Assembly: GCA_041737595.1 (NCBI GenBank)
Contig: JBGSRK010000010.1
Span: 117,375 to 181,374 of the forward strand
Length of the DNA stretch: 64,000 nt
Source: Patescibacteria group bacterium
Lineage (GTDB): Bacteria; Patescibacteriota; CPR2; UBA1875
Reading direction: 5' to 3'
Shown: positions 2,995 through 61,762 of the stretch, piece after piece
Position numbering within the stretch: the stretch's first letter is position 1
Layout of the letters: every line of letters begins with the position of its first letter
Notes under the pieces: model-generated
Told to the model about the DNA's origin: nothing
Database searches by the model: none
Seen by the model: only the letters and a program-made list of their open reading frames with translations
Program-made: the position numbers and the translations under genes

Positions 2995-4245
2995 TCAACT
3001 GTTTTCACCTAAGGAATTACCAAAAATTATTGCTACAGGGATTGAAATTGCTAGGAATTCAAACGTATTAGAAGCAAACATCATAAATGAAAATGCTAAC
3101 ATTGAACTATATAACAAATACTTATAATTGTTTTTAATAAAACTAACCTGGAATATAACAGAGATCAGAAACCCCAAGAAAGTCAAAAACCCCAAGATAC
3201 CAAATTGGATTAAAAATGCTATATATTGATTATCGGTTGTCAAAAGTGGAACATAACCATTCTGCATACCTAAAAAATATATCGGACTCGAATACATTTC
3301 TGCAAATTTACCACCATAGGTGCCCGCACCTGTCCCAATAAATGGATGATTTTTTAATATATATAAACCATTTTTAAAAGACCAAATTCTACCATCTATA
3401 GAAGCATTTAACCAGTATTCTGGGTTAAAGATCACTAAAATTCTGGATTTCAACCCTGTAAAAAATGCAAGGTTACTAATTTTATTTTTAAAATAATTTA
3501 TTGAGATAAATGGCAAAATGCCAAACAGACCTGCAACCCAAGCTGTTCGAGAAAGCGACACAAAAGATGCAGTGATAAAAACCAACATTATAATTATATA
3601 TTTTATATCTTTTTTATCTTTAAATATCGAAAGACAAATAAGAACCATCAAGACCATTAACATACCAAATACATTTGGACTCGTAAAAAATGCACTTGCT
3701 CGACCATAGATTGATTCAAGGGATGATGTTGTGAAAACTACATTCCCACTAAAATACTGCCAAATACCATAAATTGCCAACGGCAAACTGCTAAATAATA
3801 AGCTATTCAATAGTTTTATAGTCGATTGAGCTTGTGCCCAAATAAATGCTATAAAAAATAAAATAATTAACATTATATACATAGGAGCGTTTAGTCCGGC
3901 TTCGCCCCTAATAACTGCTAAAAAACTTGAACATATAGAAATTAACAAAAAACCAATATACCAATAATGTACTTTATATATCTTAATCTTACTTTTATCA
4001 GCAAATATAAGCGCAAAAAATAATAATATAAATGGCAATATATCTACTACATTACCCGGCAACATTATTTTAAACATTGGCTCATACCAACTTACAACAA
4101 GTGCAATTATCCCTAAGAAAAAAGATAATTTAGTATTTTTATATTGAAATAGTTCTAATATTTTAGATTCTTTTATTTTTTTATCAACGGAGTTAATAAA
4201 TAAATTATTAACAACCCATGAATTTTTAAATAAATTAATCTTCAT
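2995..4245 (-). CDS. O-antigen ligase / Wzy_C-family polytopic membrane protein (possible O-oligosaccharyltransferase or polymerase)
   Basis: 416 aa with more than 10 predicted TM helices and a periplasmic loop, the usual Wzy_C/WaaL/WsaB topology. Confidence 0.5.
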   Translation of the reverse strand: MKINLFKNSWVVNNLFINSVDKKIKESKILELFQYKNTKLSFFLGIIALVVSWYEPMFKIMLPGNVVDILPFILLFFALIFADKSKIKIYKVHYWYIGFLLISICSSFLAVIRGEAGLNAPMYIMLIILFFIAFIWAQAQSTIKLLNSLLFSSLPLAIYGIWQYFSGNVVFTTSSLESIYGRASAFFTSPNVFGMLMVLMVLICLSIFKDKKDIKYIIIMLVFITASFVSLSRTAWVAGLFGILPFISINYFKNKISNLAFFTGLKSRILVIFNPEYWLNASIDGRIWSFKNGLYILKNHPFIGTGAGTYGGKFAEMYSSPIYFLGMQNGYVPLLTTDNQYIAFLIQFGILGFLTFLGFLISVIFQVSFIKNNYKYLLYSSMLAFSFMMFASNTFEFLAISIPVAIIFGNSLGENS

Positions 4246-22566: not shown

Positions 22567-23430
22567 TTAGCTAATCTCTTTTTCTAAATATTTTTTTAGT
22601 TCATCTTTGAAACCATCGTGTTTTAATGCCATTGAGATGGTTGCCTTTAAAAAACCAAGCTTATCACCTGTATCATAAACTGTCCCTTTGTAATTTTTAC
22701 CCATTAAACCTTCTTTTTTTGCCATTTCAAGCATCGCGTCAGTAAGTTCTATCTCCCCTCTTTCAGAAAAACCAACATCTTCAAGATATTTAAATATTAC
22801 AGGGTCAAATACATATCGCCCAAGGATAGAATAATTTGATGGAGCATCTTTTAGTTTTGGTTTTTCAACTACACCTTTTATCATAAATTCTTCACCTTTT
22901 TCTTTAGGATCAATAATCCCATATAGATGAACCTTTTCATCGGGGACTTCAGATGCTGTTATTGTTGAAATCCCTGTTTTTTCATAATTATCAATTAGGT
23001 CTTTTAAACAATCCGGCCCATTTGCGACTAAAACATCTGGGAGTAACACTGCAAATGGTTCATCTCCGATAATGTCCTTTGCTCTAAGAACTGCGTGCCC
23101 AAGGCCAAGTGGTTCTTTTTGACGAATATAAATAATATTTGCCATCTCTGAGATTGCTTCCATTTCATGAAGTAGTTCTAATTTATTTTTTTTCTTTAAT
23201 GCATCTTCGAGTTCATATGAATGATCAAAATAGTCTTCAATTGCAGATTTACCGCGCCCAGTAATAAAGATGATATCAGTAATACCCGCTTTAACTGCTT
23301 CTTCTACTGCATAATGAATCGCCGGCTTATCAATGATTGGGACCATCTCTTTTGGCATTGATTTTGTGGCTGGTAAAAATCTTGTCCCAAACCCCGCTGC
23401 GGGGATTACTGCTTTTCTAACTTTTTTCAT
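22567..23430 (-). CDS. galU: UTP--glucose-1-phosphate uridylyltransferase
   Basis: 287 aa. KAVIPAAGFGTRFLPATKSMPKEMVPIIDKPAIHYAVEEAVKAGITDIIFITGRGKSAIEDYFD aligns with E. coli GalU. Confidence 0.85.
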   Translation of the reverse strand: MKKVRKAVIPAAGFGTRFLPATKSMPKEMVPIIDKPAIHYAVEEAVKAGITDIIFITGRGKSAIEDYFDHSYELEDALKKKNKLELLHEMEAISEMANIIYIRQKEPLGLGHAVLRAKDIIGDEPFAVLLPDVLVANGPDCLKDLIDNYEKTGISTITASEVPDEKVHLYGIIDPKEKGEEFMIKGVVEKPKLKDAPSNYSILGRYVFDPVIFKYLEDVGFSERGEIELTDAMLEMAKKEGLMGKNYKGTVYDTGDKLGFLKATISMALKHDGFKDELKKYLEKEIS

Positions 23431-23505: not shown

Positions 23506-23537
23506 CTTATGCTTTAGTAATGTACATTAGTAAAGTG
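23506..23537. repeat. 32-bp direct repeat copy A1 containing 12-bp perfect palindrome TAATGTACATTA (candidate operator), in galU promoter region
   Basis: cttatgctttagtaatgtacattagtaaagtg is identical to 23970..24001. The central 24 bp are near-palindromic. Confidence 0.8.
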
Positions 23538-23573
23538 ATATCTAGGTGGTTTAATATTGTAAATTATAGCTGT

Positions 23574-23954
23574 TTATCTTTTAGATATCGGTATTATGCC
23601 TGGAATACCCTTGTATTTTACTTTATGACTTTTTGAATAATTAATAATTACATCTTTTATATTATCAATATTTTTTCTAGTATTTCTAGAAGGATTTCTG
23701 CGAAAACCATACCCAATATGGTTACTAAGTCTAGCAATAATAGTTGAGCTAACCTTAACTTCTTGTTGAATCATTGAATATGAATATCCTGCATTAAGCA
23801 TTTCGAGTATTTTAAGTCTTCTTGCCATATCATTAATTTCACGAGGAGTTAAAATTCTTTCAAAAAGTAACTCAACATCTTTTGTTGTATTTGTAGAGGC
23901 AACTATTTTAATTAAATCTTTAATTTCTTTTTCAAACCAGATATCAATTGACAT
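23574..23954 (-). CDS. TrpR-like DNA-binding protein, YerC/YecD family
   Basis: 126 aa. ...FERILTPREINDMARRLKILEMLNAGYSYSMIQQEVKVSSTIIARLSNHIGYGF matches the YerC/YecD (Trp repressor-like) family. Its paralog lies at 58845..59201. Confidence 0.7.
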   Translation of the reverse strand: MSIDIWFEKEIKDLIKIVASTNTTKDVELLFERILTPREINDMARRLKILEMLNAGYSYSMIQQEVKVSSTIIARLSNHIGYGFRRNPSRNTRKNIDNIKDVIINYSKSHKVKYKGIPGIIPISKR

Positions 23955-23969
23955 GAGTTCTCCTTTATC

Positions 23970-24001
23970 CTTATGCTTTAGTAATGTACATTAGTAAAGT
24001 G
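23970..24001. repeat. 32-bp direct repeat copy A2 (same palindrome), immediately upstream of the TrpR-like gene
   Basis: Identical to 23506..23537. It lies in the promoter region of 23574..23954. Confidence 0.8.
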
Positions 24002-24031
24002 TTTATATATTTATTATTTCAAAGTATTTTT

Positions 24032-45729: not shown

Positions 45730-45803
45730 GTGACCTATATTAACTTAAATTTAACAATATTTCAAGTACACTTAACGGCAGATTAGTGTATATTTATTTA
45801 TAC

Positions 45804-49708: not shown

Positions 49709-49975
49709 ATGGGTAATTTAGGAAATATATTAAAAAACAAAATAGAAGAACTTGGAATTTCAAAACAAGTTGAAGCGGTTGATATTGTAGAGCGCGCAAC
49801 TAAAGAAATTGCAAAATTTATTCCAGCAGAAGACTTTGAAGTTGTTAGTTTTAATAAGGGAATAATAAAAATAGCAGTAAAATCATCTTCAGTAGCCAAT
49901 GAAATATTATTTTTAAAACCAAAAATTATTATTTTAAAAACTAATAAGCTTAAAATAAATCAAATAAACCATTAA
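49709..49975 (+). CDS. DUF721 (DciA-like) small protein following recF
   Basis: 88 aa. Its position after recF and its pattern (..QVEAVDIVERA...VVSFNKGIIKIAVKSSSVANEI) fit DUF721. Confidence 0.45.
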   Translation: MGNLGNILKNKIEELGISKQVEAVDIVERATKEIAKFIPAEDFEVVSFNKGIIKIAVKSSSVANEILFLKPKIIILKTNKLKINQINH

Positions 49976-50661
49976 ACTGGTACTTCACTGATAATTACAT
50001 TTTCTGGATTAGCCCCAACAGATGTGAGCCAGTCTTTTATTAGTTCATTTATTACAGAAATAGGTTTTTTGTTTGAATATTGGACCTGAATCTCGGTTGT
50101 ACCATTACGATTTTCAAATGCATGTACGATAGTAAAAAAATCTTTTTCTATTGGAATATCTTTAACAAATTCGAACCCTTCCACATAGCCTTCTTCGAAT
50201 TGGTCAGTTCTTTCTGTGTCTAACCTTTCTAGATAGGGGCTTATTTCATCTAAATTATTTAACTCTCTTGTTATAAATAATATTTCTAGACCCCTCCCCT
50301 TTATACCAGTAATACCAATCGGGAATATTAGTAATTTGTATTCCGTATTAGGAAAAAGTTTTTGGCCCTCTTTACTCTTAATTTTTAATATTTTCCCATC
50401 AGAAAAGCCAATAAGTTCATTTTTAACACCAATTTTATCTGAAAATAATTGAATATTATTAATTTGATTAGAGTTTATTTTTTTACTAAAAGTTAGATTA
50501 ATATTGGGCTCAAGTGAAACATTCTTACTCCCATTTTCTGGTTCGACAGCCACGATTTTTGGCGGAGAAATATATACAACAACTCCAACAATAATAACCC
50601 AAAACAATAAAGCCAAAACCGCTATAAGTATAAATTTATTATTTTTATAAGAATCATTCAT
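49972..50661 (-). CDS. Membrane-anchored protein with Ig-like domain (possible VirB8-like component of the adjacent T4SS module)
   Basis: 229 aa with an N-terminal TM and PKIVAVEPENGSKNVSLEPNINLTF, a bacterial Ig-like segment. The stop abuts the CHAP gene start. Confidence 0.35.
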   Translation of the reverse strand: MNDSYKNNKFILIAVLALLFWVIIVGVVVYISPPKIVAVEPENGSKNVSLEPNINLTFSKKINSNQINNIQLFSDKIGVKNELIGFSDGKILKIKSKEGQKLFPNTEYKLLIFPIGITGIKGRGLEILFITRELNNLDEISPYLERLDTERTDQFEEGYVEGFEFVKDIPIEKDFFTIVHAFENRNGTTEIQVQYSNKKPISVINELIKDWLTSVGANPENVIISEVPV

Positions 50662-51768
50662 TTAATACCTCGTTAAACTGCCGACATTTGTCCACCTGCT
50701 GCGTCCATAGTCTCTATAACTATTTTTTTCTACACATGTTCCAGAATTTCCCTCTATAGTATAAAGGGTTGTCCCAACAATTTTCCAAACAATTCCCACA
50801 TGACCCGTTCCACCGCTTCTTGGAGCATAAACAATATCTCCTGCCTGCGGGACTACAACATCTATATCATATTCATATGGCATTGATTTATAAGAAAGAA
50901 GTGCACCACAAGTTTTGGGAATATTAGAGCCAGCTTTATTATACACCCAACTGACAAAGGCAGCACACCAAGGTGCTCCACAGGCGCAACCTGCATATAA
51001 TTGATATTTACATACTGGGCCATAATTTTGTTGACTGCCAGTACCGCAAACCGGTAAATTTGCCTCTACCAGTGCAATATCAACAATCATCCCCTTTACG
51101 CCACTTGGACTGCCCGGAGTAGTTGGCGGCGCCACAACAGTTGGCGGCGCGGTTCCCCCTCCTACACCAGTCGGGACTGGACTCCCAATAAATCCAATAA
51201 TTCCCGAGACAACAAACCCGACTAAAATTAAAACAAGAATAATCGCGATAACTACTAAAATCGCCCAACCAATGGGATTACTAACTAAAAAAGCAATAGC
51301 GCCTCCACCCTCTGTTGCAGCTGTAGCTGTTTCTGCCGCTTCAACAGCAACTTCTGTTGCTTCTAGGGCTGCTTCTGCTGCTTCGGCAGCTTCTGCTATC
51401 TCACCAGCCTCACCCCCTAATTCACCAAGCTCACCAGCCTCACCTAACTCTCCTGTTTCTCCTAGTTCACCGCCCTCAGCTCCTTCACCGCCCTCAGGTC
51501 CTTCATTAGTTTCATTAGATTCAGAATTTTTTTCTTTATCATTTTCGGTTTCATTTTTTTCTTTATCTTCTTTATCTTCTTTTTTGTCTTCCTTGTTGTC
51601 CTCTTTTTCTTTTTTCTCTCTTTCGTTGTCATTGTCCCGATCATCATCATCATCTTCTTCATCATCATCATCAAATTCATCATCAAATTCATCATCCTCA
51701 AAATCATCTAAATAATCTTTATCTGGGTCAAAGTCTGGATCATAAAAATTTGGGCTAGCCTGTGCCAT
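50662..51768 (-). CDS. CHAP-domain peptidoglycan hydrolase with acidic low-complexity N-terminus and TM anchor (VirB1/PrgK-like)
   Basis: 368 aa. A D/E-rich N-terminus and (G-E-[LA]) repeats precede TM IAFLVSNPIGWAILVVIAIILVLILVGFVV. The C-terminal CHAP domain has Cys (CGAPWCAAFVSWVY) and His (GHVGIV). Confidence 0.7.
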   Translation of the reverse strand: MAQASPNFYDPDFDPDKDYLDDFEDDEFDDEFDDDDEEDDDDDRDNDNEREKKEKEDNKEDKKEDKEDKEKNETENDKEKNSESNETNEGPEGGEGAEGGELGETGELGEAGELGELGGEAGEIAEAAEAAEAALEATEVAVEAAETATAATEGGGAIAFLVSNPIGWAILVVIAIILVLILVGFVVSGIIGFIGSPVPTGVGGGTAPPTVVAPPTTPGSPSGVKGMIVDIALVEANLPVCGTGSQQNYGPVCKYQLYAGCACGAPWCAAFVSWVYNKAGSNIPKTCGALLSYKSMPYEYDIDVVVPQAGDIVYAPRSGGTGHVGIVWKIVGTTLYTIEGNSGTCVEKNSYRDYGRSRWTNVGSLTRY

Positions 51769-53536
51769 TATTGCTTTCCTCTAATCTGTTTAATTGTTCA
51801 GGGTTTGTTGTAATTAATATATCCTCTGCATAAGACGGAGTTATTTCAATCGCAGCATGATCTTGTCCTGCAAAAAACAATCCTTCGCCGACTTCACAAT
51901 TAAGTAAGAAAAATTTTTCTGCTTGAGTTAAGTTAAAAGCCTCTACAACCATGTCAACTGCAGACGGATGTTGTTTTAATAAAATACTCATTGATGAATT
52001 ACTAATAATAGCTTTGCCATAATTAGAACCCAAAAAATCTTCTACATCTTGGACTATAGTTGTTATTCCTAAATAATACTTTCTTGCTCTTTTTGCCATA
52101 GAAAAAAGAAATTGAGCTGAATCTCGATATTTCATTAATATCCAAGCTTCATCAACCGCTAAAATCCTTTTTTTACGAGAACCTTTTATTCTATTCCAAA
52201 TAAAGTTTAAAACCATATACATTACCATTGGCCTTAGTTCGTCCTCAAGGTCTCGTATAGAGAAAACAATAAATCTATTATCAAGGCTTATATTTGATCT
52301 TCTATTAAAAATACCAGCAAAAGTTCCACTAACAAATTTACTTAAAGATGAGTTTAGTGTTTCAGCTCCTTTTAAGGATGAAAGTATTTTTATTAAATCA
52401 TCCATAATAGGGGGTTCTAGCCCGTGGGTAGATGGGTCTTTTGTGATACCCCTTGATGCATAACATTGAACTAGGGCTTGATCTAGCAGATTATCTTCAA
52501 CGGGCGATATTTTCCCTCCAGCCATTATTCTTAACAATCCATGTAAAAGAATAATATTTGATCTTAAGCTATTACCTGCATCTTCTGGATCATCTGGGTC
52601 TACCACCGGTAAATCAAATGGGTTAATAACATATTCAGAATTAATATTTAAGTTTAGATATGAACCTCCCACTGCCTTACAAAGCCGTTCATATTCGTTT
52701 TCTGGATCTATTACAAGTACTTCTGTCCCGGTTATCAAATATCTTAAGAGTTCTAGTTTTACCGAATAACTTTTCCCAGAGCCAGACTTTGCGAGTATTA
52801 CAGAATTTGCATTTTCCAAACCAAAACGATCAAAGAATATAAGCCCATTTGTGTGCTTATTTAAGCCATAAAGTATCCCATCATTTCTAGACATATTACT
52901 TGAAGCAAATGGGAAAAATGTTGAAAGTGCACCAGTATCAAGATTTTTTGAAACCATTAAGTCATCTTTACCATAAGGGAAAGAGACATTTAGCCCTTGT
53001 TCTTGTTGGAAAATAGCAGGCTTCATCATAATTAAGGACCCACCTAAAAGATTTTCTAGTACCTTTGTTAATGATTCTAGCTCTTCTTTAGATGAAGCAA
53101 AAATTGTGAAGTACAAAGATGCTTTAAATAATTTTGCTTCACCTCTTTGGAGTGAATCTCTAAGATCTTCTACATCAAAATGAGCCGTTTCTAAAAGAGG
53201 ATCACGAACCTTACCTTTTACCTGATTCTCATAAACTTGAGATTCGATTTGAGCAGATTTGTTTCTTAATTTTTTTAAAGTATCTTGTGTTTCAACAGGA
53301 TAAATAAACAAAGAAGTATTAAGTGAAAAATCTATATTAACAACAGGTGAAAGCCAATCGGTGTATAGAACTCTTGGGTAAGCATAAACAAAAAAAGTTC
53401 TTACATAATATGTTCCAAGTTGGATATAACTTGATTCAACCGAAATTGCTGAAGGGGAAATAATATCTATTATTGATGTTCCTCCTTCACTTATTATTTT
53501 TTGATCATTGTTTTTATTATTATTAAAAATGTTCAT
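51755..53536 (-). CDS. VirB4/TrsE/PrgJ-like type IV secretion ATPase, C-terminal two-thirds
   Basis: 593 aa with YVRTFFVYAYPRVL, Walker A AKSGSGKSYS, Walker B ILAVDEAW, and a C-terminal VirB4 motif. Confidence 0.85.
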   Translation of the reverse strand: MNIFNNNKNNDQKIISEGGTSIIDIISPSAISVESSYIQLGTYYVRTFFVYAYPRVLYTDWLSPVVNIDFSLNTSLFIYPVETQDTLKKLRNKSAQIESQVYENQVKGKVRDPLLETAHFDVEDLRDSLQRGEAKLFKASLYFTIFASSKEELESLTKVLENLLGGSLIMMKPAIFQQEQGLNVSFPYGKDDLMVSKNLDTGALSTFFPFASSNMSRNDGILYGLNKHTNGLIFFDRFGLENANSVILAKSGSGKSYSVKLELLRYLITGTEVLVIDPENEYERLCKAVGGSYLNLNINSEYVINPFDLPVVDPDDPEDAGNSLRSNIILLHGLLRIMAGGKISPVEDNLLDQALVQCYASRGITKDPSTHGLEPPIMDDLIKILSSLKGAETLNSSLSKFVSGTFAGIFNRRSNISLDNRFIVFSIRDLEDELRPMVMYMVLNFIWNRIKGSRKKRILAVDEAWILMKYRDSAQFLFSMAKRARKYYLGITTIVQDVEDFLGSNYGKAIISNSSMSILLKQHPSAVDMVVEAFNLTQAEKFFLLNCEVGEGLFFAGQDHAAIEITPSYAEDILITTNPEQLNRLEESNNGTG

Positions 53537-53539
53537 TTT

Positions 53540-54196
53540 TTATTTTCCTGTAACCATGTCACCGCTTATGGAATTTATGGCATTCCCAATCTTAATATTT
53601 GTTGCAATATCGGGGTTGTAAAGAATATAAATTAAATCTGCAATTTGTTCAGTATTTAATACTTTTCCCGTAAGTCCCATAGACGTTACTCCATTAACAA
53701 TTTGTTCTATTCTGGCCATTAAACCTTTTTTATTTTCCTCAAATTCAGACATGGGGTTTGTTTTTGAACCAAAAAACCCACCTTTATTTAAATTAACAGG
53801 GTAAAAAGACACAACTATATAAAACTCCTTATCCATAATATTTGCCTGTGTAAGTAACATTTCTATAAATGTTTTATATTCTTCTGCCTGGATTTTTATA
53901 AAGGGGCTTTGCTCAGCTCCAATTATTGTTTCTAACTTAGTTAAATAATCAGTTAAATCTAATTTTCTTGAAACAGAAAGTATTTGAATTGGGAATTCTA
54001 TTGAATTTAAAAAGGATTGGTATGCATAAGAAACAGATTCTTTTTCCGTTTCACTTTTTAAAGATAAATTAATCGAAGAAATAGAAACAATAGAACGGAG
54101 ACTTCCGTCCTTCATAATTATTACACCCTCCTTAATATCCTTTATTGGGACAATATTTTGGCTAGGTGCAGAAGATTTTTTATTCCCCTGTGACAT
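53540..54196 (-). CDS. VirB4-like N-terminal domain encoded as a separate ORF (split gene or pseudogene fragment)
   Basis: 218 aa. IVPIKDIKEGVIIMKDGSLRSIVSISSINLSLKSETEKESVSYAYQSFLNSIEFPIQI is the typical N-terminus of Gram-positive VirB4 homologs. It is separated from the ATPase ORF by a single TAA. Confidence 0.6.
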   Translation of the reverse strand: MSQGNKKSSAPSQNIVPIKDIKEGVIIMKDGSLRSIVSISSINLSLKSETEKESVSYAYQSFLNSIEFPIQILSVSRKLDLTDYLTKLETIIGAEQSPFIKIQAEEYKTFIEMLLTQANIMDKEFYIVVSFYPVNLNKGGFFGSKTNPMSEFEENKKGLMARIEQIVNGVTSMGLTGKVLNTEQIADLIYILYNPDIATNIKIGNAINSISGDMVTGK

Positions 54197-54234
54197 ATAA
54201 TAAGTTTAACAGATTATCGCACTTGTTTTAATAT

Positions 54235-54828
54235 CTAATTTCTTCGTCTTCTTTTAATTTCAATTTGAGGATTGTCAAAATTTTGTTTTGGAGATACGCT
54301 AGCAAGCTGCGAAAGAAGGGGTTCGGCATCTTTTTTTGAATTAACAGTACTGTTAATTGTACTATCTAAAAAACTATTTTTTTCCATTATTGGGTCCGGG
54401 GCTCCCGGATAATCAAAATTAGATTTATCAGAAACCCTAGCTGCGTTTTTTAATTTCTCCTGTATTTGTTCTAGACTTTCTCGTTTAACGGCTCGAGGAG
54501 TTTCTTCTCTTTTGTTCGGTTCTGTTTGTTCTATTTTTTCAGCCTCTCTTTTCCAAACCATTTTACGAGGATTAATGTATGAACCAATAGCATCAATAAT
54601 AATTTTTTCTAGGTGTTGACCGCCATAATCAAAAAAAGCTAATCCAAGTGCTCCTGCAATAATTATCATAGAAAAAAGATAAAAGAAAAATCTAATGGGC
54701 CCGTATAGTGCAAAATTTAATACAATAATTAGTCCAACCCCAATTAAGATTATAATAAATTGCCTAAGCGTTAATGGCCCGACAACCTTATCTTCTATAT
54801 CTATATTTTGTGGGACTTTGTATTCCAT
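54235..54828 (-). CDS. VirB3/PrgI-like small membrane protein
   Basis: 197 aa with two N-terminal TM helices after LTLRQFIIILIGVGL. It is positioned between the VirB6-like and VirB4 genes. Confidence 0.5.
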   Translation of the reverse strand: MEYKVPQNIDIEDKVVGPLTLRQFIIILIGVGLIIVLNFALYGPIRFFFYLFSMIIIAGALGLAFFDYGGQHLEKIIIDAIGSYINPRKMVWKREAEKIEQTEPNKREETPRAVKRESLEQIQEKLKNAARVSDKSNFDYPGAPDPIMEKNSFLDSTINSTVNSKKDAEPLLSQLASVSPKQNFDNPQIEIKRRRRN

Positions 54829-54840
54829 AATATTAAAATA

Positions 54841-56751
54841 TTATTTAAACTTAGGGTCATTAATTGTGTCTTGACTAGTACCGGGTCCCATTGAGGCTGC
54901 CATTTTAGACCTTGCTTCTCTGCTATCATTTGTAGCACGTTCACTCCAATTGCGCGCATTCTTTGGATCTGCAAAATAATCTACATAATGGTTTTGAGCT
55001 TCTGCGGCCCATTGTTGTTCACCATCCCAATTGCCCGCAGCATCAATAACGTCTGCCATTTTGCCAGACATATTAATAGGGTTAACCTTGTCAATCTCTG
55101 CCTTAGCCATTTTGCGGGCATTTCTAATGGTTTTTGCTTGAGCTGCAACTGTTCCACCTTCGCCCTCCATTGCAGTTAATTGAGCTTCTGACATATTTAT
55201 TCTTGCACTTTGATCAGTGTCTTTGGCAATATCAAGTGCATAATCTTTTACCATAGAAGATAGCCCTGCACTGTGGCCGTTTTTTAATAACATATTCCTT
55301 AAATCGCCATTTTCTGGTCCTTTTAATGCGGCCGGGTTATCTTTGTGAACTAATCTTAATAGTGCTATTTCTTCATTCTCACTTAAATTACCCTTCCTAA
55401 GAAGTTCAACCATTTCCTCATAACCCTTACCTTCATGTATTTCTGAAAATGCACCTTGCTGTTGCTGATTAAATCTATTTTGAGCGCTCTTATCTTCTTC
55501 TGTCCCAATAAGTTTATCAAGCCCCAATAATCTTCTCCCAAGTGGATTATTTTCATTGGCAAGCATTCTACCGGTCTTGGCGCGTCGAAGCGTTCTATTG
55601 CGAGCTGCTTTATCTTTCCATCCTTGAGACATCAATCCTAGTCCGGATTTATCAGATGCGTAACCAAGCGCCGCCCCCTTGGCCACCCCACCTATTTTTG
55701 AAAGAACTCCCCCAATTCCAGCCGTAACTGCCCCTCCGTTTTTTATTGGAATAGCAAATGCCATAAAAAATGCAACACAAAGCATCAAAGAAGCCATTAT
55801 AAAGTCATTTATCCCAGAAAATGCCATTATCGCCGAACCAATAAATAAAATAGCCATAATTTGGATTCCCATAAGACCCCACTTAAAAAATTCAGACCAC
55901 CACTTTTTGTATAAACTTTCAGTGAAAGGCAAAAGATTTGCAAGAGCCGCTAACGGTGAAATTACAATTAATAGATAAAGCATAAAAACTCTTACTCCCA
56001 GAAGAATCCAAAGCCCAATTGCAGGGAAAAGTATGATTATAGAAACGATTACGGCTAGCACAAGATTAATAACTGCCGTCGCAGTCCCAATTCCGGAAGT
56101 TGCAGCTACCCCCATATCTCTAAATGGTTTATACCAATCCCCGCCAGGGATAACAACATTATATATATTATCCACTAACATGTTTTCTATAGCACTAAAA
56201 AAACCAAGCAAGAAATCCGCAATAGCATAACTGAAAAGAGCTAAAAATAGAGTAACGACTAATTTTGGTATAATCTTCCCTAGCCCATATTTATCTCTTT
56301 GAAGGTTTAAGATATTCATTACGGCAATAATGATTATTGCTACTGAAAGTAGCCCTAATCCCAAATCTCTAAAATGAGTCCAAACTCGCTCCATGCTTCC
56401 ACTGTAAGTTGGGCTATAGGTAAGATTATTTCCCCAATCAAGAGCAGTTTTTATTGCAAAAATACAAAAACTAGAAACCCCGCCAAGTATCGCCCTACCA
56501 ATATCGGTAATAAAATTATTAATCAGCCCTGTGATACATAGTGACCATTGCCAAGGGAGAAGACTACCGCATTCTGGTGGGGTTGTGGTTGGGATTGGGG
56601 TGGGTGGAGTATATGTTGGGACGGTGTATGTTGGTGAAGCTCCTCCTCCAGGGCCAACAGAAGCAGCTCTCAAACTAACAGGAATAAATAAGCTCTGGGA
56701 CATAAATAGCGCCAGAGTCAAACTGATAATTATTTTTTTAAACACCCTCAT
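54841..56751 (-). CDS. VirB6/TrbL-like polytopic membrane protein with Pro/Thr-rich N-terminal stalk
   Basis: 636 aa with a signal peptide, PTYTVPTYTPPTPIPTTTPP, more than 6 TM helices, and a hydrophilic C-terminal 250-aa domain. Confidence 0.5.
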   Translation of the reverse strand: MRVFKKIIISLTLALFMSQSLFIPVSLRAASVGPGGGASPTYTVPTYTPPTPIPTTTPPECGSLLPWQWSLCITGLINNFITDIGRAILGGVSSFCIFAIKTALDWGNNLTYSPTYSGSMERVWTHFRDLGLGLLSVAIIIIAVMNILNLQRDKYGLGKIIPKLVVTLFLALFSYAIADFLLGFFSAIENMLVDNIYNVVIPGGDWYKPFRDMGVAATSGIGTATAVINLVLAVIVSIIILFPAIGLWILLGVRVFMLYLLIVISPLAALANLLPFTESLYKKWWSEFFKWGLMGIQIMAILFIGSAIMAFSGINDFIMASLMLCVAFFMAFAIPIKNGGAVTAGIGGVLSKIGGVAKGAALGYASDKSGLGLMSQGWKDKAARNRTLRRAKTGRMLANENNPLGRRLLGLDKLIGTEEDKSAQNRFNQQQQGAFSEIHEGKGYEEMVELLRKGNLSENEEIALLRLVHKDNPAALKGPENGDLRNMLLKNGHSAGLSSMVKDYALDIAKDTDQSARINMSEAQLTAMEGEGGTVAAQAKTIRNARKMAKAEIDKVNPINMSGKMADVIDAAGNWDGEQQWAAEAQNHYVDYFADPKNARNWSERATNDSREARSKMAASMGPGTSQDTINDPKFK

Positions 56752-56831
56752 AACTCTATTATATATTTAAGTTGTTATTACGCAATAAAAAAAATACCAA
56801 ATAACTTTAGTATTTTTTTATTTTTTAAAAT

Positions 56832-57143
56832 TTACGCAGTGGCGATTGTTTTTGCCCAGTTTAAGATAACAAGAGCCAAAACAACAACAATTACACCGAT
56901 GACTGCATTTAAGATAGCTGTTCTTGCTTCAGACGCTTTTCCAGAATCTCCTTGAGCTAAAATATATTTAACACCTGCATATACTATATATGCAACTGCA
57001 ATAGCTCCAACAAACCAAAGAATATATTCAAATATTCTTATAATTGTTGCCTTTGGGTCTCCTGCACCACTGGCTAGAGTGATGTTTAAGTCACCTGAAC
57101 TGATTGCAATCTTAGTCCCCATGGCTAATAATTTTTCGTTCAT
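56832..57143 (-). CDS. VirB2/TrbC-like pilin paralog 4
   Basis: 103 aa. Two hydrophobic helices flank GDSGKASEAR. Paralog of the three genes upstream. Confidence 0.45.
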   Translation of the reverse strand: MNEKLLAMGTKIAISSGDLNITLASGAGDPKATIIRIFEYILWFVGAIAVAYIVYAGVKYILAQGDSGKASEARTAILNAVIGVIVVVLALVILNWAKTIATA

Positions 57144-57194
57144 AATTCCTCCTTCTTAATAAATGATATTAATTTTATCTGAATAAGTCAACTT

Positions 57195-57509
57195 TTATAT
57201 TAATACTTCTCCCCAAAAACTAGATACCCAGTTTATAATTACAGCAGATATGCCGATTAAAACAACTCCAATTACAGATATTAAAATAATTTTTCTTGCT
57301 TCGGCAGCTTTCCCCGCGTCTCCTTCGGCCATAATATATTTAACCCCCCCATATATAATTGAACCAAGCCCAACCCCAACTAAAATAGGCACTAATAGGT
57401 TGTTTAAATATTTAAAAACCAAATCTTGAATACTACTACCTCCATACACGGCCGAACCTGGGAGAGTGACTGTAGCAAAATTAGTTATATTTTTTACATA
57501 TTTTTTCAT
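57195..57509 (-). CDS. VirB2/TrbC-like pilin paralog 3
   Basis: 104 aa with ...GGVKYIMAEGDAGKAAEARKIILISVIGVVLIG... Confidence 0.45.
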   Translation of the reverse strand: MKKYVKNITNFATVTLPGSAVYGGSSIQDLVFKYLNNLLVPILVGVGLGSIIYGGVKYIMAEGDAGKAAEARKIILISVIGVVLIGISAVIINWVSSFWGEVLI

Positions 57510-57513
57510 AATA

Positions 57514-57846
57514 TTAACTCGTGATACTTATAAATGTGCTAATAATAAATCCCGACGCAATAATTATTGAAAGTCCGACAAGAGAGGCGATTATTATTTT
57601 TCTCGCTTCAGTAACCTTATTTTGATCACCACCAGACATAAATAATTTGAATATACCCCAGAAAAACATTGAGACTGCTATTGCCCCAACAGCTCCAATT
57701 GCTATATTTTTTACTATGTTAACAAAAATAATTAAATCACTCGCGGTAGCGGGGTTTGGACCATTTAACCAACTAAAAATACCAGCTGCATTTACTGCTT
57801 TTGGTGTTATTAAATAATGAATTATTTCTATTAATGCCATATACAT
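57514..57846 (-). CDS. VirB2/TrbC-like pilin paralog 2
   Basis: 110 aa with ...FKLFMSGGDQNKVTEARKIIIASLVGLSIII... Confidence 0.45.
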   Translation of the reverse strand: MYMALIEIIHYLITPKAVNAAGIFSWLNGPNPATASDLIIFVNIVKNIAIGAVGAIAVSMFFWGIFKLFMSGGDQNKVTEARKIIIASLVGLSIIIASGFIISTFISITS

Positions 57847-58229
57847 GATGCCAGGGTATTTATCCCTAAAAAATTATAGATTAAAAAATAAGAAAATAAA
57901 AGCAACCCAAGGCCTGAAAGTACACCATAAATATACTCTTTTGCTTTGTCTATTTTATTTGTGTCACCAGCAGAAGTCATCCATAGATATCCAGCAAAAA
58001 TAAGTACAAGAGTAGCAACGGGGATTAAAAGTCCAGATATCCATTGCCAGACACTACAAATCCAACAATCATAATCCATAGAACCCGAAATACCACTACG
58101 ACATGATTCCCAGGGATCTCCCGGCGCAGCGAAAGCAATCTTTGCATAAAGGTTTAATAAGAAAGAGTATAATAATATTTTTTTCAATTTCATCTCTTTT
58201 ATAATATATAAGAAAAAATCTTTTCTCAA
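57831..58229 (-). CDS. VirB2/TrbC-like pilin paralog 1 with Cys-rich N-terminal extension
   Basis: 132 aa with a signal peptide ...AKIAFA/APGDP, five Cys in the N-terminal region, then ...MTSAGDTNKIDKAKEYIYGVLSGLG... Confidence 0.45.
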   Translation of the reverse strand: MRKDFFLYIIKEMKLKKILLYSFLLNLYAKIAFAAPGDPWESCRSGISGSMDYDCWICSVWQWISGLLIPVATLVLIFAGYLWMTSAGDTNKIDKAKEYIYGVLSGLGLLLFSYFLIYNFLGINTLASCIWH

Positions 58230-58256: not shown

Positions 58257-58742
58257 ATGACACTTTCATGGGACCTATTTGTACTTCTTTTTACCGGAAT
58301 TATTGTTGTATATTCTATTCTTTTAGGTAGAAATAGAATAGTCGGTATTCTTATAAATATATATATTTCTCTTGCTGTAACATTAGTTGTTGGTGATGCG
58401 GTTTATAATTTAGTTTCTAATTTTACAATTATCTCGAATAGATTTTCCGTAACTGAATTTGCCGTAAAAACAATATTCCTAGTAACCGTCACGGCTCTAC
58501 TTTCAATTAAAAGTGAAATCGCTGGACTTGATAGTGGAGGATCAGTATCAAAAATTCAAGCAGGCATTTATGGGTTTTTGACTTCTGGTTTTATTCTTTC
58601 TACAATCTTTTCATTTATGGCTGATTCGCAAATAATTGCCCTTGATTCAAATTTTGTAAATTTAATAGTAAGTTTTTATATGGTACTTGTTGTTGCCCCA
58701 ATATTATTTATGATTGGAACTGCATTTACTAAAAAGTTCTAA
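58257..58742 (+). CDS. CvpA-family-like small membrane protein
   Basis: 161 aa with 4-5 TM helices. The N-terminal DLFVLLFTGIIVVYSILLGRNRIVG resembles Colicin_V/CvpA. Confidence 0.4.
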   Translation: MTLSWDLFVLLFTGIIVVYSILLGRNRIVGILINIYISLAVTLVVGDAVYNLVSNFTIISNRFSVTEFAVKTIFLVTVTALLSIKSEIAGLDSGGSVSKIQAGIYGFLTSGFILSTIFSFMADSQIIALDSNFVNLIVSFYMVLVVAPILFMIGTAFTKKF

Positions 58743-58798
58743 AAAATATTTAACTTTAACAATTTTAGTTTATAAATTATCTTTTATATTATTTATCA

Positions 58799-58817
58799 CT
58801 ACACTACTACGTAGTAA
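58799..58817. repeat. 19-bp repeat copy B1 with 12-bp perfect palindrome TACTACGTAGTA, downstream of the second TrpR-like gene
   Basis: ctacactactacgtagtaa is identical to 59266..59284. Confidence 0.75.
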
Positions 58818-58844
58818 GACAGTGGTAAAAAAATATTTTAAGAT

Positions 58845-59201
58845 TTAATTAGGAATAATTCTTTTAATAACAGCAGGAGAACCTTTATAACCACGAGGAG
58901 AATATTTATGAATAGGTTTCTTATTATTTATTGCAATCTTTTTAGAAGTTCTTCTAAAACCAAAACCAATTTGATTGGCAACCCTTCCTATGGTGGTTGG
59001 GCTTACACGAAGTATATCTTGTATCTCTAAATATGAAGTACCCATATCTAATAATCTGACAATTTCTAATCTTTTAGCCATATCATTTATTTCACGAGGT
59101 GTTAATATTCTATCAAAAAGTACACGAACTTCTTTGTCGCTATTTGTCTTTGCAATAACTTGAATCAATTTATTGATTTCTTTTTCTCTCCAGTAATCCA
59201 T
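58845..59201 (-). CDS. TrpR-like DNA-binding protein, YerC/YecD family (paralog 2)
   Basis: 118 aa. MDYWREKEINKLIQVIAKTNSDKEVRVLFDRILTPREINDMAKRLEIVRLLDMGTSYLEIQ... is about 55% identical to 23574..23954. Confidence 0.7.
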   Translation of the reverse strand: MDYWREKEINKLIQVIAKTNSDKEVRVLFDRILTPREINDMAKRLEIVRLLDMGTSYLEIQDILRVSPTTIGRVANQIGFGFRRTSKKIAINNKKPIHKYSPRGYKGSPAVIKRIIPN

Positions 59202-59265
59202 ATTATTTATTATACTTATGTTTTTAAATAATTTAAAGATTATAATAAAATCTACACCTATTTTG

Positions 59266-59284
59266 CTACACTACTACGTAGTAA
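59266..59284. repeat. 19-bp repeat copy B2 (palindrome TACTACGTAGTA) in promoter region of TrpR-like paralog 2
   Basis: Identical to 58799..58817, about 65 nt upstream of the start codon at 59201. Confidence 0.75.
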
Positions 59285-59436
59285 TGTAGTGTTAATTACT
59301 TGTTGTTGATACTCTAAATCTATAAATTATATATTAATAAAAAATATTAGTAACGATAGCGTTAAAAATATAAAGAATATTAAAATCTTAATCAAAAGAG
59401 CCCGCTTGGGGGAGCGGACTCAAAAACAGGGGAAAG

Positions 59437-60576: not shown

Positions 60577-60972
60577 TTATATATGTTTAGTTCTTATGCT
60601 TACATTATAATGTTCTTTTGTCACTCTTTTGTCAAGCGAACGGATTCTCGAAACAACCATTTTATCAAGTAATGAAAGTCGATTTTCTGTTTGTTTATAC
60701 GAATAATAACTTATTGAATTACCACTATATAAAAGATCGAGATAATATCTTGCTTCAAAAATTGAATTTCTTACATCTGAAAAATATCTCATTTTATCTT
60801 CATCAAAATCTCTTGCTTGTCCTTCAAAAACTGCAACAGGAATTTTAGATACAATTTGACGTAAAGAAATAGCCGCACTTTTGTTTTTTTTAGCTCTTCC
60901 TGAGACTCTAAAAACTATCATTACAAGTTCGTGTGCTTTTTTCTTTAATTGTTGTTCTATATATTCTCTCAT
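60577..60972 (-). CDS. Four-helix-bundle protein (23S rRNA intervening-sequence protein family)
   Basis: 131 aa. KKAHELVMIVFRV...EARYYLDLLYS fits the PF05635 pattern. It lies between lexA and recA. Confidence 0.55.
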   Translation of the reverse strand: MREYIEQQLKKKAHELVMIVFRVSGRAKKNKSAAISLRQIVSKIPVAVFEGQARDFDEDKMRYFSDVRNSIFEARYYLDLLYSGNSISYYSYKQTENRLSLLDKMVVSRIRSLDKRVTKEHYNVSIRTKHI

Positions 60973-60993: not shown

Positions 60994-61620
60994 TTAACTA
61001 AAATTCTTTATTACCCCGATTACCTTACCTTGGATCATAAATGTGCCAAGTTTAGGGATGATTGATTTATGTTCTTTATTTGATGATACTGGTTCAAATA
61101 TTACTTTATTTTTATCAAGTCTTAATCTTTTTACTGTTGCTTCTGTCCCGATTAAAACAACCACTTTATCTCCTGGCAATCCTGAACTTTGTTTTCTAAA
61201 AACGATATAATCTCCATTATCAATCCCAGCCATATTCATTGAGTCTCCTTTTGCCCGTAACATAAATACGTCTTGAGTTTGTCCAACTAGTTTAGTTGAA
61301 ATTGGGATCCATTCTTCAATCATTTCTTCTGCCCAAATTGGCATCCCACAGGCAACATTCCCAACAAGCGGGACTTGAACCATTTCGTCTGGCGCCTTAC
61401 CTGTTTCATTAGAAACAACAATGATACCACGAGCTTTTCCTTCGATTTTTTTAATGAAACCTTTTGCCTCCAGAGAGCGTAAATGGGCAACAACTCCCAT
61501 TGGTGCAGCACAACCTATTTTAAGTTGCAGTTCTCGTACGGTAGGTGCCTGACCAGTTAAATTAATTGATTCTTTAATCCAGCCAAGGACTTTTTTCTGT
61601 TTTTCTGTTAATTGTTTCAT
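60994..61620 (-). CDS. lexA: LexA repressor
   Basis: N-terminal wHTH (LTEKQKKVLGWIKESINLTGQAPTVRELQ) and a C-terminal S24 peptidase with Ser (GDSMNMAGI) and Lys (VKRL). I take the start at MKQLTEKQ (61620) rather than the table's 61644. Confidence 0.85.
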   Translation of the reverse strand: MKQLTEKQKKVLGWIKESINLTGQAPTVRELQLKIGCAAPMGVVAHLRSLEAKGFIKKIEGKARGIIVVSNETGKAPDEMVQVPLVGNVACGMPIWAEEMIEEWIPISTKLVGQTQDVFMLRAKGDSMNMAGIDNGDYIVFRKQSSGLPGDKVVVLIGTEATVKRLRLDKNKVIFEPVSSNKEHKSIIPKLGTFMIQGKVIGVIKNFS

Positions 61621-61649
61621 ATAAGCACTCCCCTTGTATACCACTATTG

Positions 61650-61740
61650 TACACTATAACTTATCCACAGGTCAAGAATATTATAAATATATAAATATAG
61701 TATACATAAAGCTAAATAGCAAATATTATGTATACTATAT
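61650..61740. promoter_or_regulatory. Three copies of 11-mer TGTAYACTATA (two forming a 13-nt inverted repeat) upstream of lexA; candidate SOS/LexA boxes
   Basis: tgtacactata (about 61650), atatagtatacat (61695..61707) and atgtatactatat (61728..61740) are reverse complements of each other. Confidence 0.4.
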
Positions 61741-61762
61741 ATAAAAGAGACTATTTTATATA

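Follow-up and report, generated by a model that had tools for sequence, protein, structure and literature searches.

Why should a small regulatory gene be enclosed by two copies of one palindrome, the first ahead of its start codon and the second just past its stop? The question is raised by a locus in a 64,000-nucleotide stretch (hereafter the window) of contig JBGSRK010000010.1, from a Patescibacteria group bacterium of the candidate phyla radiation (CPR). The gene, here called W2, is the open reading frame (ORF) 58845..59201 on the minus strand and encodes a 118-aa helix-turn-helix (HTH) protein of the TrpR/HisR (YerC) family. An identical 19-mer, CTACACTACTACGTAGTAA, stands at 58799-58817 and at 59266-59284. 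W2 is read from the minus strand; its upstream copy is hence the one at 59266, at 64 nt from the ATG, and its downstream copy the one at 58799, at 22 nt beyond the stop. A sequence-only reading of this DNA had proposed that the repeats bracket the gene, and both copies were found where it had placed them. Their 12-mer core, with up to one mismatch allowed, occurs at these two places only in the 64 kb, where 0.05 matches were expected and none of 100 shuffled sequences contained two. As described below, the layout is kept in nearly all readable relatives of W2, which points to a conserved, previously undescribed wiring of a self-controlled regulator.

The repeat stretches to 30 nt at 87% identity and the functional unit is a dyad of 28-30 bp, in which two CACTA-like pentamers, an 8-bp centre and two TAGTG elements follow each other and the outer arms (CACTACACTA / TAGTGTAGTG) are the conserved parts. 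The upstream dyad covers 59263..59292 (core 59266-59289), reads ACACTACATTACTAC/GTAGTAGTGTAGCAA in gene orientation and is centred ~76 nt before the ATG. Its downstream counterpart, at 58796..58825 (core 58799-58822), reads CCACTGTCTTACTAC/GTAGTAGTGTAGTGA in the same orientation and lies between convergent genes. The 12-mer TACTACGTAGTA that had been taken as the core unit corresponds to the variable centre plus the inner arm; the conserved recognition elements are the outer CACTA/TAGTG repeats. When the window was scanned with the family model R1, the W2 upstream site, which belongs to the training set of R1, was the best match at 29.7 bits, and the downstream site reached 26.3 bits.

A second gene of the same family, W1 (23574..23954, minus strand, 126 aa; 56.9 bits against PF01371), is bracketed as well, by a palindrome that differs from that of W2. 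Identical 32-mers stand around it at 23507-23538 and 23969-24000. The upstream dyad of W1 (23973..24002; CACTTTACTAATGT/ACATTACTAAAG) lies 21 nt before the ATG and abuts the ribosome-binding site, a clear AAGGAG that W2 does not have. The downstream dyad (23509..23538) is found 36 nt beyond the stop and ~79 nt upstream of galU (22567-23430). The two proteins share 49.6% identity by tblastn and 47-48% by MAFFT, which is less than the ~55% first estimated; that the window holds two TrpR-like paralogs and that each has a palindrome of its own on both sides was borne out. Searches of the window with 24-mer models, with half-sites separated by 6-10 nt spacers, with single half-sites and with a covariance model recovered only the four bracket sites of W1 and W2. 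Likewise, R1 detected no further family site, either across the window or across related loci that add up to 90 kb.

The layout recurs in the relatives of these genes, which were drawn from species-representative genomes, metagenome contigs and individual protein look-ups. For each homologue, the 220 nt upstream were compared with the 220 nt downstream and the longest common word was recorded. It was at least 13 nt long in 24 of the 28 loci first examined, usually measured 19-38 nt and was mostly a perfect palindrome. Control ORFs from the same DNA gave 7-12 nt in 170 of 175 cases; two of the five that reached 13 nt or more were antisense ORFs inside a TrpR-like gene. When an upstream flank was paired with the downstream flank of another locus, the median was 9 and the 95th percentile 14. 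Finally, the gene has its own palindrome on both sides in 28 of the 30 non-redundant loci with both flanks readable, a count that takes in the loci L036, L038 and L041. Mismatch-tolerant scans found 2-8 copies per locus, at least one on each side, with the downstream copy starting 0-55 nt after the stop and overlapping the stop codon itself in L007 and L032. Measured from centre to centre, the two sides of the bracket are 389-548 bp apart, with a median of 451. Away from the TrpR-like gene, no copy of a locus's palindrome was found in flanks of 2-12 kb or in the 64-kb window. The bracket is therefore kept in related and in positionally orthologous loci with no unlinked copy in the window or in any locus, which passes the refuting test that the sequence-only reading had set.

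The exceptions are L014/L015, which is frameshifted or rearranged, and L037, a divergent member. In L014/L015 the frame leaves the family after about residue 85 and runs to 167 aa instead of ~120, and the upstream palindrome is kept but the downstream one is absent; this could be a cassette that was rearranged or is decaying, or else an assembly chimera. At the other extreme, L041 (positions 3380-3830 of a Logan SRR30502207 contig) contains seven copies of the palindrome CCTACTATATAGTAG with their flanks, spaced 63-74 nt apart. The array takes up the 540-nt gap that separates the TrpR-like gene from the gene of a DNA glycosylase, and its own spacers form repeats of 140-206 nt.

The bracketed genes form a small group. 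At E <= 1e-24, 17 clusters (50% identity) were retained from 2682 TrpR-family hits, with 16 full-length matches of 104-167 aa, and the members are recorded as coming from uncultured Saccharibacteria and unclassified metagenome-assembled genomes. The bracket was not found in three outgroups, namely a YerC-like gene upstream of hrcA and two HisR-type genes; the latter overlap either a gene like hisZ, with a tRNA-synt_His domain, or simply the following gene. Judged from these comparisons, the bracket, present in 28 of 30 loci, is an ancestral trait of a whole CPR-restricted subfamily and not a recent product of the cassette duplication that had been suggested. Of note, two long proteins collected on the way, P0028 (740 aa) and P0034 (1112 aa), match the HTH part of the profile 7-12 times in tandem and, by this pattern, are repeat proteins built of TrpR-like HTH units.

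What kind of element are the palindromes? Seventy sites from 27 loci were aligned on their dyads. The family half-site reads C-A-C-T-a-C-A-C-T-A at positions -14 to -5, next to an 8-bp centre that is lineage-specific. Over the 27 loci, conservation is 0.93 at T-11, 0.85 at C-7, 0.96 at T-6 and 1.00 at A-5; the remaining half-site positions are lineage-specific and track the recognition helix. Close relatives have common operators, and a P-to-K change in the recognition helix accompanies ACACTAGACT-type sites. A comparison of recognition helices with half-site differences, put forward earlier as a check on the two paralogs, gave no clean residue-to-base rule. Dyad pairing holds in 86.9% of cells versus 67.5% in shuffles and 25-54% in slid controls, and double-sided changes were counted in 149 cells versus 55 expected. 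In addition, the symmetry extends to the middle of the site, pairs 14-17 being complementary in 50 of 51 cases and pairs 15-16 in 45 of 51. Symmetry through the very centre agrees with a symmetric protein bound to double-stranded DNA and disagrees with the loop of a hairpin. What can be read directly from the DNA is where the sites lie, that they are exclusive to the gene, how symmetric they are about the dyad and how they are conserved and co-vary across the family.

The same alignment bears on the possibility that the palindromes act as RNA hairpins in the transcript, either as 5' or 3' stabilisers or as a bidirectional terminator. The proximal copy of clade I starts at the predicted transcription start site (TSS) and so would be transcribed, the W2 copies fold at -9 to -11 kcal/mol, differences between copies are symmetric and compensatory, and G-T mismatches on the sense strand outnumber A-C ones by 38 to 25, which is not significant. 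However, a loop needs no symmetry at the centre, folding of the W1 site yields no more than -3.5 kcal/mol (z 0.15) and the W2 upstream copy is located upstream of the likely promoter. Moreover, the sequence of the arms is conserved family-wide, which is not required of a mere stem, no T-run stands right after any downstream copy inspected and no Rfam match was obtained. A role in RNA is thus considered very unlikely.

The simpler notion of a terminator was tried and rejected on the same absence of T-runs, and the terminator scan finds that of recA only. This intrinsic terminator, a GC-rich stem followed by a T-run at 59398..59421 on the minus strand, marks the upstream boundary of the W2 cassette. 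Transcription of recA can thus end there without help from the palindrome.

The protein encoded between the sites is a member of the TrpR/HisR superfamily by both domain and fold. W2 scores 62 bits against Pfam Trp_repressor PF01371 (cutoff 27, E 5.6e-17). Its AlphaFold2 model consists of six helices, with a predicted local distance difference test (pLDDT) score >90 over residues 1-80, followed by a basic tail (81-118) with a pLDDT of ~55 that is probably disordered. Conserved GFGFRR and KYKG motifs are found in this basic C-terminal tail of ~40 aa (alignment A1). The top Foldseek matches of the model are 3KOR, 3FRW, 3G1C and 1TRR/1TRO, the last two being complexes of E. coli TrpR with its operator, with root-mean-square deviations of 2.4-2.8 Å over 74-79 residues, and a search of PDB sequences with the family profile returned the HisR/YerC-type structures 3KOR (1.4e-11), 3FRW and 3G1C. 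In an alignment made by eye, R44, which is invariant, and R73, which is mostly R or K, stand opposite residues that we take to be R54 and R84, the Trp-contacting arginines of E. coli TrpR.

W2 lies outside TrpR proper and HisR proper by score cutoffs, genomic context and its extra tail. It reaches 43.4 bits with the TrpR equivalog TIGR01321, below the cutoff of 67.25, and 42.1 bits with the NCBIfam YerC/YecD model TIGR02531, 0.1 bit short of the cutoff of 42.2 (W1, 38.2 bits). TrpR proper controls trp genes and uses L-Trp as its corepressor, and HisR/YerC genes stand beside, or control, genes of his biosynthesis or transport; no trp or his gene was seen among the annotated or matched neighbours in the loci and the window. 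The known TrpR and HisR operator motifs, TGTAcTnGTnnACnAgTACA and cacTTTAnnnnnnTAAAgtg, are palindromic and contain a NACT element; a site upstream of the repressor's own gene has been reported for TrpR and for about half of the hisR genes, and a conserved downstream site is not mentioned (PMC9413887). The W2 family resembles these systems in its fold and domain (PF01371; 3KOR, 3FRW, 3G1C, 1TRO) and in its palindromic sites with NACT-type half-elements. In contrast, its sites measure 28-30 bp with four half-elements instead of 20 bp, the CTA is 1 bp further from the dyad, and the protein carries the ~40-aa basic tail whereas HisR/YerC proteins are about 100 aa long and have none. It also forms a separate small subfamily with a conserved downstream site, absent from the three outgroup loci.

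Taken together, it is rather probable, as far as sequences can tell, that W2 is an autorepressor of the TrpR/HisR fold, encoded between its own operators, with the downstream one being an auxiliary operator that works via looping and/or as a roadblock. We infer that the protein binds the sites, that binding represses and that the sites cooperate in one of these two ways. Both palindromes would be cognate sites of the protein encoded between them, which would bind as a two-fold symmetric oligomer. With four NACT-type half-elements, a 28-30 bp site could possibly take more than one dimer, as in the tandem complex of 1TRR.

The upstream site would be the autoregulatory operator. In many relatives it overlaps the -10 element or the TSS, or abuts the ribosome-binding site, a position that is classical for repression. 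An extended -10-like motif, TGTATACTTGT, stands directly before the promoter-proximal site in 7 loci and never at downstream sites. In L017, L019, L020, L022, L024, L027 and L038 the word TGTA(T/C)ACTTGT occurs once per locus, 66-88 nt upstream of the ATG, and in each case the promoter-proximal palindrome follows it without a gap; the word is strictly conserved and likely represents an extended -10 promoter kept across divergent genomes. Elsewhere in the family the proximal site abuts the ribosome-binding site.

The site past the stop would be an auxiliary operator, retained for its joint action with the upstream one. A loop would bridge ~390-550 bp and enclose the promoter and the whole gene, comparable to lac O1-O2, gal OE-OI or lambda OL-OR. 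Alternatively or in addition, the occupied downstream site may be a roadblock that seals the 3' end of the unit, and where the next gene is co-directional the same site could also control that gene. Among the copies of L002, L008, L017, L019, L022, L026 and L027, degeneration is greatest in the promoter-proximal one and the distal-upstream and downstream copies are perfect, which is the pattern of a weak primary operator aided by strong auxiliary ones. At position +/-14 the upstream copy has C..G and the downstream copy T..A in 6 of the 7 loci that differ there, and this suggests a conserved functional difference between the two sites.

Looping repressors such as lac (O1-O2-O3), gal (OE-OI), deo and lambda CI (OL-OR) also have several operator copies that flank a promoter or gene at tens to hundreds of bp, and the gene of the lambda repressor is itself located between its operators. 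Here, 28 of 30 loci have one or more copies upstream and one or more downstream, set well apart on either side of the promoter, and several loci share with those systems a weak promoter-proximal site between strong flanking ones. The difference is that the far site stands just past the stop of a 360-bp repressor gene, so that a loop would enclose exactly one gene. Furthermore, W2 has a TrpR fold without a known tetramerisation module, and looping is here a proposal made from sequence.

Several observations weigh against an autorepressor with a looping or roadblock partner site. The spacing of the sites shows no helical phasing (Rayleigh R 0.24, p ~0.22 at 10.5 bp, n=26), which is neutral for loops of ~450 bp, phasing being expected mainly of short ones, and lends looping no positive support; the seven downstream copies in L041 are more than looping needs. 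At W2 itself, the downstream copy has one perfect and one degenerate arm and departs from the ideal 24-mer at 4 positions, the upstream copy at 1. The W2 upstream site also lies upstream of the best promoter candidate, its centre near -75, and not over the promoter. This candidate is a sigma-70-type promoter at 59209..59237 on the minus strand (TTTAAA-17-TATAAT, 10 of 12 consensus matches), weak evidence because the scan gave no more promoter-like sites than shuffled sequences did. Its TATAAT ends 7 nt before the ATG and no Shine-Dalgarno sequence is present at 59202-59244, and for these reasons the W2 mRNA may be leaderless. In addition, 23 symmetric double substitutions were counted between copies within a locus, which simple protein recognition does not predict; they hint at selection for self-complementarity or at a mutational mechanism that generates it. 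Finally, a regulon may exist elsewhere in the genome, the scan having covered the 64-kb window.

The position of the downstream site relative to the next gene helps to decide whether it belongs to the regulator or to its neighbour. The next gene runs co-directionally in ~14 loci, its start lying 5-196 nt past the downstream site, and in such loci, for example at galU after W1, the site may also control that gene. In ~9 loci, including W2 and L030, the downstream site lies intact between convergent genes. As the copy is kept where the next gene is convergent, it is not simply the operator of the neighbour. These two arrangements bear on the view that the sites are two independent operators, the upstream one autoregulating and the downstream one serving the neighbouring unit (the type IV secretion system (T4SS) and pilin genes for W2, galU and envelope genes for W1), with the bracket as a by-product. 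The co-directional loci speak for it, together with the repeat of L011, which continues beyond the palindrome as a duplicated leader would, and with a recurrent synteny that associates W1, L013, L001, L006, L010/L011 and L038 with a 284-aa and M23-peptidase pair and W2 and L030 with the T4SS. Against it, a site between convergent stops is no one's promoter operator, the promoter-like TGTATACTTGT accompanies upstream sites only, and neither a palindrome copy nor a family-like site was found in the T4SS, pilin or envelope-gene promoters of the window. Such a division of labour is regarded as unlikely. As to the L011 repeat itself, it spans 1517-1580 and 2065-2130 and runs ~35 nt past the palindrome (GTG[CA]TTGAGTAGG..TGTGG.TAAGTGC), like a duplicated leader before the next gene.

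The neighbourhood of W2 was read in the order rnpA, rpmH, dnaA, dnaN, an ORF in the recF position, the T4SS genes (minus strand), a 161-aa gene (plus strand), W2 (minus strand) and recA; the recF call relies on position and on comparison with L030 only, and rpmH was read from the sequence. The adjoining T4SS and pilin genes of the sequence-only reading were identified as a Gram-positive-type module at 49972-58229, directly after dnaA, dnaN and the recF-position ORF as in L030. It comprises four tandem T4SS_pilin paralogs (56832-58229), PrgI (54235-54828), a VirB4/TraG-P-loop ATPase (51755-53536), a CHAP-domain hydrolase (50662-51768) and a Big_5 protein. The gene for the 161-aa membrane protein (58257-58742), on the opposite strand, separates W2 from the pilin genes. 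Read in flipped orientation, the L030 locus has the order rnpA, dnaA, dnaN, recF, TrpR-like gene, 85-aa gene and T4SS, and its VirB4-like protein is 65% identical; by gene order, W2 and L030 are positional relatives, although their regulators stand at different ends of the T4SS, one opposite to the other.

Other members have other surroundings. W1 and L013 share the order M23/beta-propeller protein, TrpR-like gene, galU; in L001, L006, L010/L011 and L038 the TrpR-like gene is followed by the 284-aa homologue and the M23 protein; L032 and L041 have radA, PIN, TrpR-like gene and DNA glycosylase. The neighbours met in the family are thus recA, T4SS, M23-peptidase, galU, recF and PIN/glycosylase genes. 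The earlier proposal that each copy is assigned to one large surface-structure locus is backed only by synteny, which places W2 and L030 by the T4SS and W1 with about six relatives by the M23-peptidase/284-aa pair, but the promoters there hold no copy of the palindrome. The case for a functional tie of the regulator to its envelope or T4SS neighbours, made from gene order, is circumstantial.

The loci with many sites recall another class of systems, in which a protein and its sites form a nucleoprotein complex that is not transcriptional, be it centromere-like, a chromosome landmark or a titration array, and autoregulation is a side effect, as for ParB/SopB with parS/sopC. Partition loci such as F sopB-sopC, P1 parB-parS and pB171, where parC1/parC2 flank parAB, have palindromic sites directly downstream of the gene or on both sides, to which the array in L041 may be compared. 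That locus has 1 upstream and 7 downstream copies at 63-74 nt, or ~6-7 helical turns, and five copies are present in L002. Both W2 and L030 lie close to the origin, by dnaA-dnaN-recF, and in the window and loci scanned the sites surround the gene only, with no visible regulon. On the other hand, the sites described here are chromosomal, there is mostly one downstream site and the protein has another fold. Most loci have just 2-3 sites, the array is found in L041 only, the upstream position at the -10 element, TSS or ribosome-binding site is typical of repression, and no ParA-type ATPase adjoins the gene where neighbours are annotated, those of W2 being recA and a membrane protein. By analogy with partition systems, such a complex would be conceivable for W2 and appears quite improbable. 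A related view, also rather unlikely, is that of a self-contained device: the only genomic targets of the protein would be the sites enclosing its own gene, in a closed loop or in a multi-site nucleoprotein complex such as the 7-site array of L041 could form. Its main job would then be to serve as a landmark or centromere-like structure on the chromosome, as an insulator of transcription near the origin and T4SS, or as an epigenetic-like bistable switch, rather than to regulate other genes in the classical way.

The geometry of the sites, an arm, an 8-bp centre and an arm, is also that of recombinase core sites. The palindromes could accordingly be viewed as lox-, dif- or pdif-like recombination sites that move or flip the gene as a small mobile or invertible cassette, an idea close to the mobile module of the sequence-only reading. 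The orientation of the copies does vary: they are direct in some loci, as seen from the asymmetric centre CTTTAGTT, and inverted in L003, L020, L024 and L030, and the genomic context varies between lineages. Yet the protein is an 80-residue HTH domain with a tail and has no catalytic domain, and no recombinase gene was seen among the immediate neighbours annotated. No homologue was found in viral contigs, phages or mobile plasmids, the only plasmid-like relative being one distant YerC on a chromid, and no solo or dispersed sites occur in the window or in the 90 kb of loci. Moreover, W1-L013, L032-L041 and W2-L030 are positional orthologs at ~50% protein identity. Genes that stay in place over such deep divergence, with no homologues in mobile elements, argue against a mobile module, and a recombining cassette is highly improbable. 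Repetitive extragenic palindromes (REPs) and their RAYT genes offer a parallel, as there too a gene has on either side copies of the palindrome presumed to be the target of its product. REPs, however, occur in tens to hundreds of dispersed copies and the RAYT proteins are HUH transposase-like enzymes, whereas the sites of the W2 family stay next to the gene, whose product is a simple HTH protein.

Since W2 lies beside recA and lexA, a LexA/SOS box was also considered for its palindrome. This was rejected, as the repeats upstream of lexA and recA differ from it and the bracket occurs in loci without recA. The lexA gene (60994-61644) has an upstream inverted repeat, ATATAGTATACATAA and TTATGTATACTATAT separated by 15 nt, at 61700-61760, with more GTATAC words near the promoter; this repeat, possibly the local LexA box, has no relation to the TrpR-like palindromes. 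Between lexA and recA, the gene at 60577-60972 belongs to the '23S rRNA intervening sequence protein' family (four-helix-bundle type, PF05635). Further away, the rpmH-dnaA spacer contains at 45766-45791 the sequence GTACACTTAACGGCAGATTAGTGTAT (ACACT-N12-AGTGT), which is half-site-like with 2 bp of extra spacing and has a chance probability of ~0.07; two DnaA-box-like words TGTGGAAAA (45803 and 45834) stand beside it. The search for extra sites also gave an AT-rich match of 17.5 bits in the dnaA-dnaN spacer.

To our knowledge, CPR/Patescibacteria encode very few transcription factors and hardly any cis-regulatory code has been defined for them, and the literature searched contained no description of this subfamily in CPR bacteria or of flanking or downstream operators. 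The family described here provides a conserved regulator with a precise 28-30 bp operator model for CPR, together with a simple finding rule, which is to look on both sides of the gene. Its operator is kept just past the repressor's own stop, whatever the neighbouring gene. If the two sites do loop, they would make a minimal natural one-gene loop, of use for cooperativity, noise control and insulation in tiny genomes. In addition, two paralogs with distinct palindromes in one genome are a natural pair for the specificity code of the TrpR fold. This consistently conserved architecture thereby gives a concrete handle on gene regulation in CPR bacteria.

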